IMG/VR virus record: IMGVR_UViG_3300022680_000058
Span: 83,980 to 147,979 of that record
DNA from: a virus
Reading direction: 5' to 3' (one strand)
Length of the DNA stretch: 64,000 nt
Shown: one piece after another, positions 3,986-49,390 of the stretch
Position numbering within the stretch: the stretch's first letter is position 1
How the letters are laid out: every line of letters starts with the position of its first letter
The notes under the pieces: generated by a model
The model's database searches: none
What the model was told of the DNA's origin: nothing
What the model saw: only the letters and a program-made list of their open reading frames with translations
Program-made: the position numbers and the translations under genes

Positions 3986-4003
3986 AATCTTCTCCTCCTG
4001 AAC

Positions 4004-4019
4004 AGGCAATCAATTGCCC
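4004..4019. repeat. Dispersed 16-bp palindrome copy 1
   Basis: AGGCAATCAATTGCCC (1 mismatch). Confidence 0.8.
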
Positions 4020-4022
4020 ACC

Positions 4023-17700: not shown

Positions 17701-18411
17701 CTATCGTTCTGTGATCCCCCACTCGACCACATCGACCACATCACCAGGCAACTGTTGGACCTGCCCGAAGCTTCTCGGGAGCTCGAACCCTTCAGCGAGC
17801 TTTTCCATTCCAGCTCGAATCAAAGTCGACGTCACGAACTCTTCGACCTGAGACTTCGCGGCAGAAACGACCCTTTCCGCCGACTCCTCGAACTGTTTGA
17901 GAATGAAAGGAGCGCTACTACTGAACCATTTGAATAGCTCAGCAAATATCCACGAGATCCTCTCTCGGTCCTTTTTTGTGAGCGTTTTTTTGCTCAAAAT
18001 CCTGTCGAGCTCTTCCTGACGACCTTCGATTGAAGATGTAAGCTCCCAGACCTGGCTCCGAAACCGCTTCAAGACCTTCACCTGCTCCGACTCGTGGGTC
18101 TCGGGAACAGGCTCGATCTCACCCTTCCCCGTGACGAACTTCAGTGTACACGGTATCCCATCACCATGGTTGAGCGTTGTAATGGCCTGGGCAAACTGGA
18201 CCGGAGACATTTCAAGCTCGATGAGCTCCTGATCCCGAAAAAACCGATCCCGAGAAAGTGAGTGCTGTCGGTATGCTGTCGAGACAACGATCTGGATCTT
18301 GTCCCTGTGATTGTCGAGGTGAGATCCAAAAAGGCGCCCTCCCCCCGTCATTCTACAGATCCGCAACATCCCAAAGCTCTCGTGTTCTTCCCGATCTACC
18401 TTCTCCTTCAT
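17701..18411 (-). CDS. Phage hypothetical protein
   Basis: HESFGML...LFGS...EMSPVQFAQAITTLNHGDGIPCT; strong RBS. Confidence 0.7.
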   Translation of the reverse strand: MKEKVDREEHESFGMLRICRMTGGGRLFGSHLDNHRDKIQIVVSTAYRQHSLSRDRFFRDQELIELEMSPVQFAQAITTLNHGDGIPCTLKFVTGKGEIEPVPETHESEQVKVLKRFRSQVWELTSSIEGRQEELDRILSKKTLTKKDRERISWIFAELFKWFSSSAPFILKQFEESAERVVSAAKSQVEEFVTSTLIRAGMEKLAEGFELPRSFGQVQQLPGDVVDVVEWGITER

Positions 18412-18434
18412 GACAACCTTCTCCTTCTACTCCT

Positions 18435-18475
18435 AAAAAACGTAGCCCCTCCGGCTGGGGTGAACCGGAGGGGCT
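18435..18475 (-). terminator. Intrinsic terminator
   Basis: 11-bp stem AGCCCCTCCGG/CCGGAGGGGCT followed by ACGTTTTTT on minus strand. Confidence 0.85.
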
Positions 18476-18615
18476 TTCCTGTAACAGGGGGGGGTACTGT
18501 CACCCGAACCGATGGCTCGGAAAGACTATTCAAAGCTTCCCCTTACGAACTCAGCGACTATTCATTCGCAGGTAAAAGATCGCGTCTTTGAACAGCCTTT
18601 CCAAACCACCCGTAT
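18435..18615 (-). ncRNA. Structured ~180-nt ncRNA with own promoter and terminator
   Basis: 23-bp stem (18586-18608 with 18513-18535, several G:U), C8-loop hairpin (18481-18503), terminator (18435-18475), promoter at 18622-18650. Confidence 0.7.
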
Positions 18616-18621
18616 ACACCT

Positions 18622-18650
18622 ATCATGGTGTCATGGTATCCGACTGTCAA
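18622..18650 (-). promoter_or_regulatory. Sigma70-like promoter (ncRNA class)
   Basis: TTGACA-17-CATGAT; shares TTGACAGTCG...CATGATAGGTG with 29276-29304. Confidence 0.7.
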
Positions 18651-26339: not shown

Positions 26340-26421
26340 CGAGCACACCTCGCCCATCCTCCCGAGTATACACCGCCACTCGGATAGAGCCTATCCGTCT
26401 GATTTGATTGGGTCTCAGAAT

Positions 26422-26437
26422 GGGCAATTGATTGCCC
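26422..26437. repeat. Dispersed 16-bp palindrome copy 2
   Basis: GGGCAATTGATTGCCC. Confidence 0.85.
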
Positions 26438-26499
26438 ACTCCAGAAAGAGAAAGGGCCACCATAGTCTCACCATGGCAGCCCTAACGTATTGAAAACAT

Positions 26500-26865
26500 T
26501 GGAGGCGGTCAGAGTCGAACTGACGTCCACACCCCCTCTGCTCGTGAGCTCTACGTGCGTATCTCCTGATCAATCTCGGCGTCATCGAGTTCAGGAGCAA
26601 ACTCTCTGAGCCAGTCGTGCGAGATGTCAGCCGCGCAGGTTACAGAATGAGTCACACACGAGACACTCACTCACTACGCGCCGCTAATGGCGCCCCTTGT
26701 TCCCATAGCAGCAGTCTGGGAGGGACGTGAGATTACGCCGCCAGGCTCATCTCAGGATAGCTGTCAGTGTTGGCAACTGGTTGTTCGTCCTGTTTGACGC
26801 ACAAGGACGATCCTCGGCACGCTCACACAAACGTCATGGGATCTGTCGAAACCTTTTTCGCCCCC
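26500..26865 (-). ncRNA. ssrA: tmRNA, tag peptide (A)ANTDSYPEMSLAA*
   Basis: 5' GGGGGCGAAAAAGGTTTCGAC; 3' GTCAGTTCGACTCTGACCGCCTCCA; acceptor with G3:U70; tag ORF 26774..26733; 366 nt. Confidence 0.95.
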
Positions 26866-26890: not shown

Positions 26891-27739
26891 TCAGCCACCT
26901 TCTTCGATGTCCTCGATGATTCCGGCGAGACCCTTGATCGCCTTGGCCTCGGAATCTCCGATCGCCCAGAGCACACCCTTGATGAATCCGTCTCCGAGAA
27001 CTTTCGCTGTCTTCGGGTTCTCGATGACCTTCCGGGCGAGTGACTTCTTCGGGGCGAGCACGACAGGACTCTCCGTCGTACCCTTCTGCCCCTTCGCATC
27101 TCGAACCGTCGTTTTCCCCGTCTCCAGCATATTCTCCAGAGCAGCCTTCTGCTCTTCCGGAGAGAGGTCGGCGAGTTCCACAGCCGCACTCATCGAGATC
27201 TTCCCAGCCTCGACAGCGTTTTTGACCTCGGGAATGCAGTCCAAAACCTTCAGCCAGTTGGCGATGGCCGTAGCAGAGACACCGAAGATGACGCCGACCT
27301 CGGCGTTGTTCTTCCCCCTCTGCTTATACCGCTCGGCCTTTTCCGCCTTGGCGATCGGGTCATCATCGACGCGGTGCTCGTTCTCACTCAGAAAGATCCC
27401 CATGATGTGCTCATCACTTCCACGTTTGAGCATGGCAGGGACCTCGATGGGCTGCTCTCCCATCGACAAGAGCTTCTCATTCGCCTTTCTGGCTGCGACC
27501 ACACGACGTCGACCGGCGACCACGAGAGCCCTGTCCCCATCCTTCCGGATCGCGATGGGCTGGATGATACCGTTGACCATGATGTTCTTGACCATCTCCG
27601 GAGAAATCGGCTTCTTGAGCCGCTTCATGTCGTAGAGGTCATGCTCCGGACCATCGTCTGTATCGAGACCAATAATCACAAGGTCTTTTGGATCAAACGA
27701 GTACGCCGTCACCCGCTTCTCGAAGGCGTGCTTCCCCAT
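26891..27739 (-). CDS. ParB/Spo0J-like protein (ParB-N + HTH)
   Basis: GIIQPIAI...VVAGRRRV...SENEHR...AEVGVIFGVSATAIANWL. Confidence 0.85.
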   Translation of the reverse strand: MGKHAFEKRVTAYSFDPKDLVIIGLDTDDGPEHDLYDMKRLKKPISPEMVKNIMVNGIIQPIAIRKDGDRALVVAGRRRVVAARKANEKLLSMGEQPIEVPAMLKRGSDEHIMGIFLSENEHRVDDDPIAKAEKAERYKQRGKNNAEVGVIFGVSATAIANWLKVLDCIPEVKNAVEAGKISMSAAVELADLSPEEQKAALENMLETGKTTVRDAKGQKGTTESPVVLAPKKSLARKVIENPKTAKVLGDGFIKGVLWAIGDSEAKAIKGLAGIIEDIEEGG

Positions 27740-27762
27740 ATCTCCATCTCCGTCTTTCTTGC

Positions 27763-27918
27763 TCACCCTGGAACTCCAATCAGAGCTGCGAGGAAACCAA
27801 TGGTTCCTCCGATATACCAAGGGGCCATGATGACAGCGAGCAATATCGCACCAGCAACGATGTTCAACCCCTCGGCAATCATCCTGACCAGCGACTCAAC
27901 CATCTTTGCCCACGTCAT
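27763..27918 (-). CDS. 51-aa hydrophobic membrane peptide (below ORF-track cutoff)
   Basis: MTWAKMVESLVRMIAEGLNIVAGAILLAVIMAPWYIGGTIGFLAALIGVPG*; GGAG RBS. Confidence 0.55.
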   Translation of the reverse strand: MTWAKMVESLVRMIAEGLNIVAGAILLAVIMAPWYIGGTIGFLAALIGVPG

Positions 27919-27946
27919 GGACCATCTCCAGAATCAAATCAAGCAC

Positions 27947-28108
27947 TGTGTCGCGATGACAAAGTGTACACCACACCGCCGGGTAAGGCGGCGACAGGCG
28001 GACAAACCTGCTCCTCTGGGGTTTCAATCCAGCGTGCGTTCTGGGGTGGCAGCCCCAATGTCCGATCACTTGTCATCACGAGCGCCCCTCTGCCAAGGGA
28101 ACGACACA
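27947..28108 (-). ncRNA. Multibranch structured RNA A
   Basis: Ends pair (TGTGTCG/CGACACA; CGATGACAAAGTG/CACTTGTCATCACG) enclosing five short hairpins. Confidence 0.6.
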
Positions 28109-28113
28109 CAATG

Positions 28114-28236
28114 CGGTAGGGTAGGCTGGACTCGAACCAGCTAGTGACACGGAGACACTCTTTTTTGAGTATCAGAATGGCGACGAAATCAAAACGACCC
28201 ATTCCGACTAGCAACTTCCGTATCGCCACGCTCCCT
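28114..28236 (-). ncRNA. tRNA-like element 1 (non-canonical)
   Basis: T-arm GCTGG-TTCGAGT-CCAGC, imperfect acceptor AGGGAG/CTACCCT, 3' ACCG; oversized middle. Confidence 0.55.
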
Positions 28237-28255
28237 GTGAGCTCTCACCCCAAAA

Positions 28256-28398
28256 AGGAAGTCTAGCCTTTCTCCTCAACTAAAAGCACAACACTTCAAA
28301 GTGCTATGAATCGCCTAATTAGGGCGGTCTAGTCTCGATCCTGGCACACGTAGTCCAAAAGTCCCTTGCAGCAACAGGGCGGTACTGGGCTGACTTCC
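28256..28398 (-). ncRNA. Multibranch structured RNA B
   Basis: Closing stem GGAAGTCAGCC/GGCTAGACTTCC then U-run; internal hairpins. Confidence 0.55.
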
Positions 28399-28505
28399 TG
28401 GTGACGATGGCTGGACTCGAACCAGCGCCTCCCCTCGATACTTCCAGGGCTACCTTCCTCTACAAGGTTTCGGTCTCCTAATCCCTTGCAGGCGGGTCAT
28501 CGCTC
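28399..28505 (-). ncRNA. tRNA-like element 2 (non-canonical)
   Basis: Same 17-nt T-arm as element 1, acceptor (A)GCGATG/CATCGT(C), 3' ACCA; no standard anticodon arm. Confidence 0.6.
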
Positions 28506-28536
28506 AATATGGAGGTACCAATTCCACGAGCCCCGC

Positions 28537-29012
28537 TTAGTACACATCGTCAATTCGCGCTTGCTTTTCTTGACAACCAATCCGGACAAGGCGAGATGCT
28601 GGGCTTCCAGCATCGAACCTCGAAAAATTGTCCCTGGCGATTCGCCAGACGCCAAGCGCCACCTCACTCTCAAGTCTGTCCGGCCAGATTCCTCCACCTG
28701 GCTCCAGTTTCAGTCCGCACAATGCGGAAACCGTCGCACCATCGAGCTCAACCACCACCCGACAGCACAGACCTTTCTAGGCCCACTCCAACCAGGGCAC
28801 CACACGCCCTCGGACAGCTTCAGTGGAAAGTCGAGGACCCGCCCCTCGATGAGACCTGACGCGCCCATTACAACGTCCGTCTCTTCCCAGCCGGGAGACA
28901 GAGACCAAAGAAAAGTCCCGAGGCCATGCCAGATGGTTTTTCTTTCATAACACCTGGGCGACCAGTCTCCCTTATCGAGTTCTTCCGCATTGATCGAGGG
29001 TGGTCGACTCAA
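28537..29012 (-). pseudogene. Probable frameshifted ORF
   Basis: ORFs 28710..29012 and 28537..28758 join if one G is added at GTCGGGTGGTG (~28760). Confidence 0.35.
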
Positions 29013-29087
29013 ACCTCACACGGCGACTGCACCGTATGGGTGGCGCCCATGATTGACACGCCTCGCCTCCACGAATGCTTAGAACCC

Positions 29088-29175
29088 GGTGGGAAGCCGG
29101 GGAATCGAACCCCAAGGCCCAGTGAAAACGACGTGAAGCAACCCGTGTAAGCTTCTATCATTTATGCCGCTTCCC
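29088..29175 (-). ncRNA. tRNA-like element 3 (non-canonical)
   Basis: Perfect 7-bp acceptor GGGAAGC/GCTTCCC, discriminator A + CC(G), T-arm TGGGG-TTCGATT-CCCCG; D/anticodon arms do not form. Confidence 0.65.
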
Positions 29176-29176
29176 A

Positions 29177-29270
29177 TGGCGCGAACAAAACAAGAGTACA
29201 TGGACTCTTTATCGGAACTCTGCCCTGACCGACATGAAAGGAGAGCATTCACTCTCATCTGTCCGCGTCC
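29177..29270 (-). ncRNA. Cloverleaf-like structured RNA C ending in CCA
   Basis: CGCGGACAGA/TTTGTTCGCG closing stem, three internal hairpins; starts at predicted TSS. Confidence 0.55.
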
Positions 29271-29275
29271 CACCT

Positions 29276-29304
29276 ATCATGATGCTGTGAACAGCGACTG
29301 TCAA
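29276..29304 (-). promoter_or_regulatory. Sigma70-like promoter driving ncRNA island
   Basis: TTGACA-17-CATGAT. Confidence 0.7.
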
Positions 29305-46848: not shown

Positions 46849-48132
46849 CTATCCATCATCAGAACCCTTCCCTCGGAGCCAGGGCGGCTTCCACTTCCCC
46901 TTGACGAAGGCTGACACCCCCTCGTCGTGACACTTAACGATCCAGAGCTCGGCACTCCTGTATGCGTTTTTCCACTCTCCAACGACGCCACAACTCTGAC
47001 AGGCGACCTCAGAATCATCTGGTTCCTCGTGGGTATAATCGCTCCGCTGGTACTTGATACCCCTGAGTGCCCCGTATTTCTGCGAGAGGTGGATTCTCTG
47101 GCTCGCAATCTCCCACCGGGCTGCCAAGACAGGGTCCATGCCCACGCCGTTTGTGAGGCCCGCCTGGTAGTCCTCATCGAAGTCTGATCCGTAGCCACTT
47201 GTTCCCTTGGCCATGTACCGGACCGCCCGCTCGATCGAAACGGGCAATTGATTGCCCATCTGGTCGCCGAACTCAATGACCTCTCTGTGGACGTGTCCGA
47301 TTTCCTGGCCACAGAAATCCTGGGCGGCGACGGTCAAATCCTCACCAGAGAGCTCGGGGCCAAAGTACAGGACATGAGAATGGACGTGTCCCCTGACCGA
47401 GCACTCGATGGTCCTGAACATCGCCGCCTCGTCACACTTCAGGACTTTGTTCCAAAGGGTCGATACAGCCTTTTTGATGGCGAATGTACGACGCCGAAGA
47501 GCTTCGACGGTCACATCCTCCTCATCAAATGGGTTGTACTTGGTGGTCACAGTGTAGAACTGCCACTTGTAGTCCTCGGGACCTGAAATCCTATCCCAGA
47601 TGTCATTGTAGAATTCCTGTACCTTCTTTGACCTGACCCAGCCACACGTCGGACACGTCGTCCACTTACACGTCCTATGTGAGCCAGCATAGGAACCCGA
47701 CCCCACCCGCTCCTCACCACAGCATTCACACTTCCGGACAGCGACGACAGCTCCACACCTCTCGAACTCCTTGAACCGGCGGGACCACCTGTCTCTCTCT
47801 GGCTTCGGGGCGCCCCTCAGAATATCTCGGGCGGCATCCACTACCCGCTGACGAAAAAGTCGGGGCGAAACACTCTGCACCCTGTCAAAGATTGGATAGG
47901 CACGGATAGAACTAGAATCACCAAAGAGTAACTTACCATCTATAGGGATAGAGGAATCAGAACCGTCTACGTCTCCTCCTCCATGGCTCAGTATCTGGCT
48001 CCCGTACTCCTGTGATAACGCCAGCTCTGCCAGCTCGTCCTCTTCGTCAACACCTTCTGGTATGTACAAACAAGAGTCGTCACTCTCATGCAGCTCTCCA
48101 CTTTCGCTCATCAATCGGTCGGTGAAGCTCAT
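46849..48132 (-). CDS. HUH rolling-circle replication initiator (Rep_1/IS91-like)
   Basis: Zn motif CECC...CKWTTCPTC; motif I FYTVT; motif II HVHSHVL; motif III RYMAK. Confidence 0.82.
   Translation of the reverse strand: MSFTDRLMSESGELHESDDSCLYIPEGVDEEDELAELALSQEYGSQILSHGGGDVDGSDSSIPIDGKLLFGDSSSIRAYPIFDRVQSVSPRLFRQRVVDAARDILRGAPKPERDRWSRRFKEFERCGAVVAVRKCECCGEERVGSGSYAGSHRTCKWTTCPTCGWVRSKKVQEFYNDIWDRISGPEDYKWQFYTVTTKYNPFDEEDVTVEALRRRTFAIKKAVSTLWNKVLKCDEAAMFRTIECSVRGHVHSHVLYFGPELSGEDLTVAAQDFCGQEIGHVHREVIEFGDQMGNQLPVSIERAVRYMAKGTSGYGSDFDEDYQAGLTNGVGMDPVLAARWEIASQRIHLSQKYGALRGIKYQRSDYTHEEPDDSEVACQSCGVVGEWKNAYRSAELWIVKCHDEGVSAFVKGKWKPPWLRGKGSDDG
47242..47257. repeat. Dispersed 16-bp palindrome copy 4 (inside rep)
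   Basis: GGGCAATTGATTGCCC. Confidence 0.85.
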
Positions 48133-48713: not shown

Positions 48714-49052
48714 TCAGGTATCGTACCACCTTACCCATGTGACTCCAGACCTAGACAGCGACAGCGACACTGCTCTTGTAGCTGTTCTCGATATTGATTT
48801 TTGTGAAAGTCCGAATCTGGATGCAGCAGTCCTAGACCACGATCTAACCCTTGAACATGATCGCGACCTGAGTCTCGGCCACTTTGATTTGCTCACCGTT
48901 CTCACAAGAACCATGTGTTCAAGATTGGATGGTGAACATGAGCTCATCACTTGTAATGCCAAAATGAGGGGCGCCAAGAGATCAGGGTCCTCTCCCCCTT
49001 CAAGGAGGTGGTCCCAAGCTACTTGGATGTCTTCGGGGAGGTCAAAGATCAT
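48714..49052 (-). CDS. DLPED-family protein with degenerate Ser/Arg-rich tail
   Basis: MIFDLPEDIQVAWDHLLEGGEDPDLLAPLILA. Confidence 0.7.
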   Translation of the reverse strand: MIFDLPEDIQVAWDHLLEGGEDPDLLAPLILALQVMSSCSPSNLEHMVLVRTVSKSKWPRLRSRSCSRVRSWSRTAASRFGLSQKSISRTATRAVSLSLSRSGVTWVRWYDT

Positions 49053-49390
49053 TGCGTTACTCCAGATCTAGACCTAGACCTAGACCCAAACCTAGACCCA
49101 AACCAAGACCTAGACCCAAACCTAGACCAAGACCTAGACCAAGACCTAGACCAAGACCTAGACCAAGACCTAGACCAAGACCCAGACTTAGACTTAGACC
49201 AAGACCTAGACCAAGACCCAGACTTAGACTTAGACTTAGACCAAGACCTAGACCTAGACCAAACTAGAAACGGAACTGATTGTCCATCTTGAACAGCTAA
49301 GATAAGAGGAACCAAGAGTTCGGGGTCTTCTCCTCCTTCAAGAAAGTAATCCCAAGCAACTTGGACGTCCTCTGGCAGATCGAGGATCAT
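49049..49390 (-). CDS. DLPED-family protein with Ser/Arg/Trp repeat tail
   Basis: MILDLPEDVQVAWDYFLEGGEDPELLVPLILA + (SR/SW/SK/SG/FG)n. Confidence 0.75.
   Translation of the reverse strand: MILDLPEDVQVAWDYFLEGGEDPELLVPLILAVQDGQSVPFLVWSRSRSWSKSKSKSGSWSRSWSKSKSGSWSRSWSRSWSRSWSRSWSRFGSRSWFGSRFGSRSRSRSGVTQ
49063..49262. repeat. Hexamer tandem repeat array (minus strand TCTAGG/TCTTGG/TCTAAG/TCTGGG/TTTGGG)
   Basis: About 33 contiguous hexamer units directly visible. Confidence 0.95.

Follow-up and report, generated by a model that had tools for sequence, protein, structure and literature searches.

The locus considered here raises the question of what lies in a 235-bp gap between two minus-strand genes of a phage: a gene for a structured RNA, a control element of the neighboring genes or a palindrome in the DNA. 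The gap is part of a 64,000-nucleotide (nt) stretch, hereafter the window, that corresponds to bases 83,980-147,979 of the IMG/VR virus record IMGVR_UViG_3300022680_000058, a record of 147,979 bp with an estimated completeness of 77%. A sequence-only reading of the window had placed a stand-alone structured non-coding RNA in this gap. The feature is real and lies far beyond chance. Its best explanation, put forward tentatively, is a phage gene for a small RNA (sRNA) of ~180 nt that possibly doubles as a leader for the genes behind it. This phage-encoded sRNA would be new, falling into no described family, and is presented as a well-supported candidate from a single genome. Unless stated otherwise, positions are those of the window and features lie on the minus strand, running from higher to lower numbers.

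The structural evidence is dominated by a single long helix. For the predicted transcript (18616-18435) the folding energy is -85.1 kcal/mol (z = -6.4), a value reached by 0 of 200 shuffled sequences, and the fold is strand-specific: the interval 18430-18650 gives z = -6.0 on the minus strand versus z = -1.0 on the plus strand. The G:U-bearing rod described by the sequence-only reading is present, with its length corrected from 23 to 25 uninterrupted pairs, beyond which a 1-nt bulge is followed by two further pairs. This helix is the longest contiguous stem, with G:U pairs allowed, on both strands of the full record outside a tandem repeat, and a rough estimate from the strand base composition puts the chance expectation for such a stem at ~1e-3 per this genome. 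The repeat, a tandem array at 49028-49291 with a 12-nt period and at least 15 copies, gives rise to spurious long G:U stems on the minus strand.

As DNA, the two arms of the helix match at 20 of 25 positions, and the five mismatches are all G:T when read on one strand and A:C when read on the opposite one. The five non-Watson-Crick pairs are thus all G:U on the minus strand and A:C on the plus strand, which argues for selection on the RNA, as had been proposed. The same pattern bears on the explanation that the element is an inverted repeat acting as DNA (an operator, an origin or a recombination site) or a chance palindrome, in either case with no RNA function. The position between a gene for a ParB-domain protein and the replication module would suit a DNA site, but the imperfect match of the arms, a plus strand that folds no better than its shuffles, the lack of iterons or further copies, the estimated chance expectation and the promoter and terminator that bracket the element in the correct order and orientation make this explanation highly improbable.

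The remainder of the RNA is less uniform. The inner stems proposed for the apical region are found in the minimum-energy fold, but they are weakly supported by their pair probabilities, and the 50 nt enclosed by the helix have a mean unpaired probability of 0.44. The hairpin with a poly-C loop is present; its loop carries most of a C8 run at 18494-18487 (7 C, or 8 with the closing pair). An intrinsic terminator follows, again as described earlier, and is among the two strongest minus-strand terminators between 14 and 34 kb, the other of which follows the transfer-messenger RNA (tmRNA) gene of the phage. The U6 tract (18440-18435) is set 3 nt away from the terminator stem. A gap of this kind should lower termination efficiency, and termination is therefore probably incomplete. 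A coding check of the minus strand returned no open reading frame (ORF) of at least 60 aa; the only ORF is a 41-aa frame with a TTG start that runs through the terminator, for which the chance of being open is estimated by the author at ~14%. With no convincing ORF on this strand, the element is predicted to be non-coding.

Evidence for a transcription start of its own comes from the promoter motif that the sequence-only reading had located upstream of the helix. The motif matches the consensus at 10 of 12 positions (TTGACA, a 17-nt spacer and CATGAT), and its -35 hexamer overlaps the TGA stop of the upstream methyltransferase gene. The motif, 34 nt long, recurs once at 29304-29271, where it likewise overlaps an upstream TGA and likewise precedes a non-coding structured sequence; the two copies share 10 identical nt on the -35 side and 11 on the -10 side around a variable 13-nt spacer. 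This recurrence before a second non-coding structured stretch supports independent transcription. A catalogue of sites that combine a perfect TTGACA with an acceptable -10 hexamer has 23 entries, most of which have an ORF preceded by a Shine-Dalgarno (SD) sequence within 7-105 nt. The outliers are the 18650 site and its copy, at 210 and 517 nt from such an ORF, and these are the only two minus-strand sites in the catalogue without an SD-preceded ORF for at least 200 nt. In combination, the strand-specific fold, the bracketing promoter and terminator and the recurrence of the motif are consistent with a stand-alone structured non-coding RNA.

The motif is not confined to RNA genes. The GGTG-containing element 3' of the -10 hexamer is common to several mRNA promoters of this phage, and a third, looser relative of the motif lies before a protein gene, which places the motif in the general promoter repertoire rather than in a class reserved for RNA genes. 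Many of the phage promoters carry a TGGTGARAG element directly 3' of the -10 hexamer. A separate family of strong sigma-70-like promoters, with several sites at 31658-62302, has a common extended -35 region (TATTGACAAAC). A promoter for a phage polymerase was considered and rejected, with no T7-like RNA polymerase or sigma factor found in the phage record, which makes promoters and terminators of the host type the relevant signals. The coordinates of the features are collected in Table 1.

Table 1. Positions of the RNA element, its parts, its neighboring genes and related sites
Feature	Position	Strand	Details
Promoter motif	18617-18650	-	-35 TTGACA 18650-18645, 17-nt spacer, -10 CATGAT 18627-18622, then AGGTG
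Predicted transcript, ~180 nt	18435-18615	-	5' end ~18615 inferred from the -10 position; 3' end in the U-tract
Helix 5' arm, 25 bp, uninterrupted	18586-18610	-	Pair probabilities 0.91-1.0; 5 G:U
Helix 3' arm, 25 bp	18511-18535	-	Pairs with 18610-18586
Apical region, 50 nt, ill-defined fold: weak 8-bp stem and weak 4-bp stem	18536-18585	-	Pair probabilities 0.11-0.37
C-loop hairpin, 7 bp, 9-nt C-rich loop	18481-18503	-	Pair probability ~0.48; -5.5 kcal/mol alone
Intrinsic terminator: 13-bp stem 18475-18444, 9 G-C pairs, loop CACCCC	18435-18475	-	-26.2 kcal/mol
Upstream gene: ParB_N + MT-A70 DNA methyltransferase, 404 aa	18647-19861	-	Pfam MT-A70 2.9e-33, ParB_N 7.6e-08
Downstream gene: phrog_6452 family (PHROG 6452) protein, 236 aa, function unknown	17701-18411	-	PHROG family match
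Second copy of the promoter motif, heading ~1.45 kb without a convincing ORF	29271-29304	-	34-nt motif recurrence
Candidate target, G9 site	L171:5427-5442; genome 35426-35441, outside the window	-	Complementarity to the C8-loop hairpin

As an sRNA gene, the element would work as follows. The host sigma-70 RNA polymerase would start at ~18615, from the promoter that overlaps the methyltransferase stop codon, and most transcripts would stop at the intrinsic terminator at ~18437 to give an RNA of ~180 nt, while in read-through transcripts it would form a leader of the downstream genes. The RNA would have both ends locked in helices, and a 5' end nearly flush with the 25-bp helix should be protected from 5'-end-dependent decay. 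The perfect duplex would be long enough to serve as a substrate of the host ribonuclease III (RNase III), whose cleavage would free a 3' piece of ~75 nt that holds the C8-loop hairpin and the terminator hairpin with its own C-rich loop. This C-rich 3' part would be the working end, pairing with G-rich stretches at or near ribosome-binding sites.

Pairing of this type is known from sRNAs of other bacteria whose hairpin loops are rich in C, among them RsaE/RoxS, RNAIII with its 3' hairpins, actinobacterial 6C RNA and Caulobacter CcnA. The element resembles them as a short transcript with an intrinsic terminator and C-rich loops able to pair with G-rich or SD sequences, the loops of its two 3' hairpins containing C7-8 and CACCCC. 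It differs in having no sequence or covariance-model similarity to any of them, in its 25-bp perfect 5' helix, which none of them has, and in that its pairing is predicted. Membership in the 6C family was rejected: a 6C RNA needs two hairpins with loops of at least 6 C, the element has 7 C (8 with the closing pair) in one and 4 in the other, and there is no Rfam match.

A candidate target can be named for the C-rich loop, to which the sequence-only reading had ascribed a possible anti-SD action. Runs of at least 6 C are rare on the minus strand (six in 148 kb), and the C8 run is among the two longest of them. This strand has a single G9 run, in an intergenic spot of the tail module, where it precedes by 2-3 nt the AGGAG of an 88-aa ORF (L171:5149-5415); a tail tube protein gene is close by. 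With the loop and 3' arm of the hairpin the G9 site would form 16 contiguous pairs (-31.9 kcal/mol), a complementarity to the hairpin far longer than any other in the genome; when the flanks are shuffled with the homopolymers kept, 1.3-1.8% of the shuffles reach 16 pairs (p ~0.015). A second G-rich site, G6AGGG at 18346-18338, is located 65 nt into the downstream gene and ranks 11th of 7,397 windows. Short-word BLAST for extended antisense targets within the phage returned chance-level matches only. Both G-rich sites are post hoc leads, not evidence of regulation.

Relatives and known families were then sought at several levels. Against Rfam, the tmRNA gene alone matched in the whole window at the gathering score, and no family matched the element, in which the sequence-only reading had recognized no SRP, RNase P or riboswitch signature. 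At the locus itself, with E values up to 10, all matches were sub-threshold and aligned to the terminator region, the best being CC3664 (24.7 bits versus a cut-off of 60) and Rhizobiales-2. A blastn search against 50,697 phage records gave no match to the RNA, and exact and degenerate patterns for the helix arm, the C hairpin and the promoter motif gave no matches or chance matches in IMG/VR and GTDB genomes. A covariance model built from the single sequence, used together with nhmmer, found no match in ~160 loci around homologues of the downstream gene; the model likewise found none in 45 whole related virus records and, in the phage's own genome, recovered the element itself with no paralogue. 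Neither IMG/VR nor the isolated phages yielded a close relative of this phage in searches with the methyltransferase, the DnaB-like helicase and the phrog_6452 protein. The nearest homologues of the downstream protein, 47-52% identical and on metagenome contigs, have no such element upstream. Stems of 19 bp in one group of loci (L040) were considered as rod RNAs and rejected as AT-rich repeated DNA motifs.

Several of these results weigh against an sRNA gene. No homologue was found in any collection searched, and hence there is no covariation support. The transcript of ~180 nt is predicted from the sequence, and the gene that follows has no promoter of its own, an arrangement that fits a leader as well as an sRNA. 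The C-loop hairpin, with a pair probability of 0.48, is just marginally stable, two homopolymers such as C8 and G9 pair almost trivially, and the targets, all within the phage genome, were sought post hoc. Base composition also matters: the plus strand of the record has 45,781 C versus 33,399 G, a strong asymmetry, and the minus strand, which is G-rich (31% G), carries nearly all genes of the window half of the record. A G-rich strand favors G:U pairs by composition, and the argument for selection on the RNA is somewhat weakened by it.

The missing promoter leads to the explanation that the element is a cis-acting leader, akin to the attenuator for 17701-18411 suggested by the sequence-only reading. 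The downstream gene is the first of several small genes, behind which the replication module follows on the same strand (a DnaC-like loader, a DnaB-like helicase, a primase, a helicase and a UvsX-like recombinase), and a simple scan of the minus strand found no promoter-like site between 18622 and 14829, so the next ~5 genes must be reached by read-through. A leader would mean that the 18650 promoter serves 17701-18411 and the genes beyond it, that the terminator is overcome by antitermination and that the terminated RNA is a by-product; the antitermination could be factor-dependent, as at lambda PR'/tR', or RNA-dependent, as with HK022 put RNA. The absence of a promoter is the main argument for it. 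In addition, the replication genes must be expressed, only 23 nt (SD included) separate the U-tract from the ATG at 18411, and the transcript from the second promoter copy would also open with a long 5' hairpin (~92 nt, at ~29265-29182 in the non-coding region 27821-29304) and cross terminator-like sites toward a ParB-like gene and the tmRNA gene.

Other evidence counts against a leader. The structural ensemble contains no pairing that sequesters or competes for a terminator arm, the terminator loop being fully open and its stem fully paired; Rfam gives no riboswitch, leader or other cis-regulatory match; and no Q-type antiterminator (PF06530, PF03589) was found in the 77%-complete record. These three results count against a classical attenuator; factor-dependent antitermination at the terminator is possible. 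The hairpins behind the two promoter copies have no sequence in common, and most homologues of the downstream gene have no upstream gap. A cis-acting leader with a regulated terminator is accordingly considered possible but rather unlikely.

The closest known parallel to a leader is the lambda late region, in which PR', a 194-nt '6S' transcript and tR' are arranged much like the element: a constitutive-looking promoter, a transcript of ~180-190 nt, a strong terminator and a long promoter-less operon on the same strand. The likeness ends at the control elements, as no Q-like gene was found in the record and there is no recognizable qut, nut or put element here, and the lambda '6S' transcript, unlike the element, is not dominated by one long perfect helix. 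The c4 RNA of P1 and the CI RNA of P4 are leader-derived regulatory RNAs.

A further reading joins the two promoter copies in one function. The two hairpins that would lie flush with 5' ends (18610-18511 and ~29265-29182) could be a new cis-acting RNA for put-like processive antitermination. The RNA would modify the host RNA polymerase that had just made it, and the polymerase would then cross the terminator at 18475-18435 into the replication genes or, behind the second copy, the terminator-like sites toward the ParB-like and tmRNA genes. In a less likely variant, the 25-bp helix would be an anti-defense decoy. This reading is judged improbable.

The other direction, from upstream, is the basis for treating the element as a part of the methyltransferase mRNA. 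A promoter-like site at 20111-20083 lies upstream of the methyltransferase gene, and transcripts from it would cross this gene and end at the same terminator, so the RNA could be both a primary transcript and the 3' untranslated region (UTR) of the methyltransferase mRNA. As an operon 3'-UTR element without a function in trans, the helix would be an RNase III processing or stability site resembling those of T7 early mRNA or lambda sib retroregulation, the terminator would end the operon and the promoter-like motif would be weak or irrelevant. A perfect helix of at least 20 bp is an established RNase III substrate. RNase III processing helices are known from T7 early-mRNA sites, the lambda N-leader and sib and the leader-trailer stalks of ribosomal RNA; like these, the element has an intergenic helix of two or more turns flanked by genes that belong to one transcription unit. 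The classical phage RNase III sites are shorter and have an internal loop, whereas the helix here closes a 50-nt domain directly behind its own promoter. This explanation is unlikely, since the promoter motif is duplicated with 21 identical flanking positions and its second site also stands before a non-coding RNA, and the C-loop hairpin has no role in the model.

Helices of a similar kind are found in other phages. In two other lineages, plus-strand elements (L112:2341-2479/L113:2341-2479 and L150:275-415/L155:1968-2108) contain uninterrupted 23-bp helices, each of which closes a branched domain of 93-95 nt with tRNA-like features (fold z -3.9 and -7.0). The first of these elements ends 22 nt upstream of a phrog_6452 homologue and the second ~390 nt upstream of one. 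One of the elements has a T-arm-like hairpin and a weak match to tRNA-Sec (25.9 bits), and none passes the Rfam gathering score or is called by ARAGORN. They are not homologous to the RNA at 18435-18615. Their occurrence suggests that long leader-trailer helices around small structured RNAs are a recurring device in large phages, which fits a processing-stem role and lends some support to the 3'-UTR explanation.

The element might also act on a protein. As a sequestering decoy it would mimic double-stranded RNA, trap RNA polymerase in the manner of 6S RNA, bind Ro as a Y RNA does or trap Cas9 in the manner of tracr-L or a viral single-guide RNA (sgRNA). An ordinary bacterial sRNA would not usually contain a perfect 25-bp helix, and the RNA adjoins a methyltransferase gene, which is a typical anti-restriction gene. 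However, Rfam gives no match to 6S RNA, Y RNA, YrlA or trans-activating CRISPR RNA (tracrRNA; CRISPR, clustered regularly interspaced short palindromic repeats), and no TROVE, dsRBD, ProQ or RNase III gene was found in the phage record. Decoys as a group are rated quite unlikely.

Individual decoy types were examined further. The 6S-like polymerase decoy suggested by the sequence-only reading did not survive: the total length of ~180 nt and the partly rod-like shape do resemble 6S RNA (ssrS), but no Rfam match appears at E values up to 10, there is no large central bubble, and the rod spans 100 of the ~180 nt, the remaining 75 nt forming separate hairpins and a terminator end. A Y RNA or YrlA was rejected on the absence of an Rfam match, of a bulged Ro-binding helix and, in the phage record, of a TROVE gene. 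The msr-msd RNA of a retron was rejected as well, with no RVT_1 match in the record and neighbors that are the methyltransferase and phrog_6452 genes. Among phage sgRNA-like RNAs, tracr-L is the long form, described as having a short guide and a long stem with a large loop in between and a terminated tail (bioRxiv 10.64898/2026.06.01.729453). The overall layout of the element resembles it in the long G:U-bearing stem, in the large loop that intervenes and in the hairpin and terminator that make up the tail. Such RNAs need a single-stranded 5' guide of ~11-14 nt or more, and the element, from its predicted start, would have ~5 unpaired nt or fewer and hence no guide. Exact and degenerate patterns for the 5' stem arm, a weak test in that no further mismatches were allowed, identified no CRISPR repeat: there were 0 matches in IMG/VR and one chance match, in a coding region, in the 185,579 species genomes of GTDB. 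No anti-CRISPR neighbors were recognized at the element. A tracr-L- or sgRNA-like function is therefore very improbable.

An sRNA gene at this site would be of interest for several reasons. The regulatory RNAs of large environmental phages are almost uncharted, and this candidate is unusually clean, with promoter, structure and terminator all within 215 bp. Perfect 25-bp helices are normally avoided in bacterial RNAs, as they are cut by RNase III; the RNA, if made, would either undergo deliberate RNase III processing or serve to engage a factor that binds double strands. Its position at the entry to the replication gene block means that it could time a switch between early and later genes. The dedicated-looking promoter that it has in common with a larger non-coding region next to the tmRNA gene hints at a co-regulated RNA program.

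That larger region (27821-29304) has features of its own. Behind its 5' hairpin there is a tRNA-like unit (~29175-29092), not called by ARAGORN, in which the acceptor stem has 7 bp and a canonical T-arm and ACC are present, and a weak Rfam tRNA match (19 bits) is found at 28402-28469. Downstream follow, in order, the ParB-like gene (26891-27820), the tmRNA gene (26497-26865) and a strong terminator (26483-26453). The region looks like a stable-RNA operon or a decayed tRNA cluster.

Searches of PDB and Atlas gave no lead on the function of the phrog_6452 protein encoded directly downstream of the element. Proximity of family members to tRNA or tmRNA genes (within ~3 kb) was seen at 7 of 161 loci, a frequency that does not clearly exceed chance. 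In a 395-kb phage (L007:4032-4417, L117:3532-3917), ~350 nt separate a phrog_6452 homologue from a downstream tmRNA gene, behind which come the genes for tRNA-Met and tRNA-Gly.

The tmRNA gene of the present phage, which has no canonical tRNA gene, encodes the tag ANTDSYPEMSLAA; it has no match among phages, and its 5' 21-mer is absent from GTDB genomes. A 20-bp palindromic motif occurs in three copies in the window (4001-4020, 26419-26438 and 47239-47258), the second of which lies between the tmRNA terminator and the next gene, and this palindrome may be an operator for a phage regulator.

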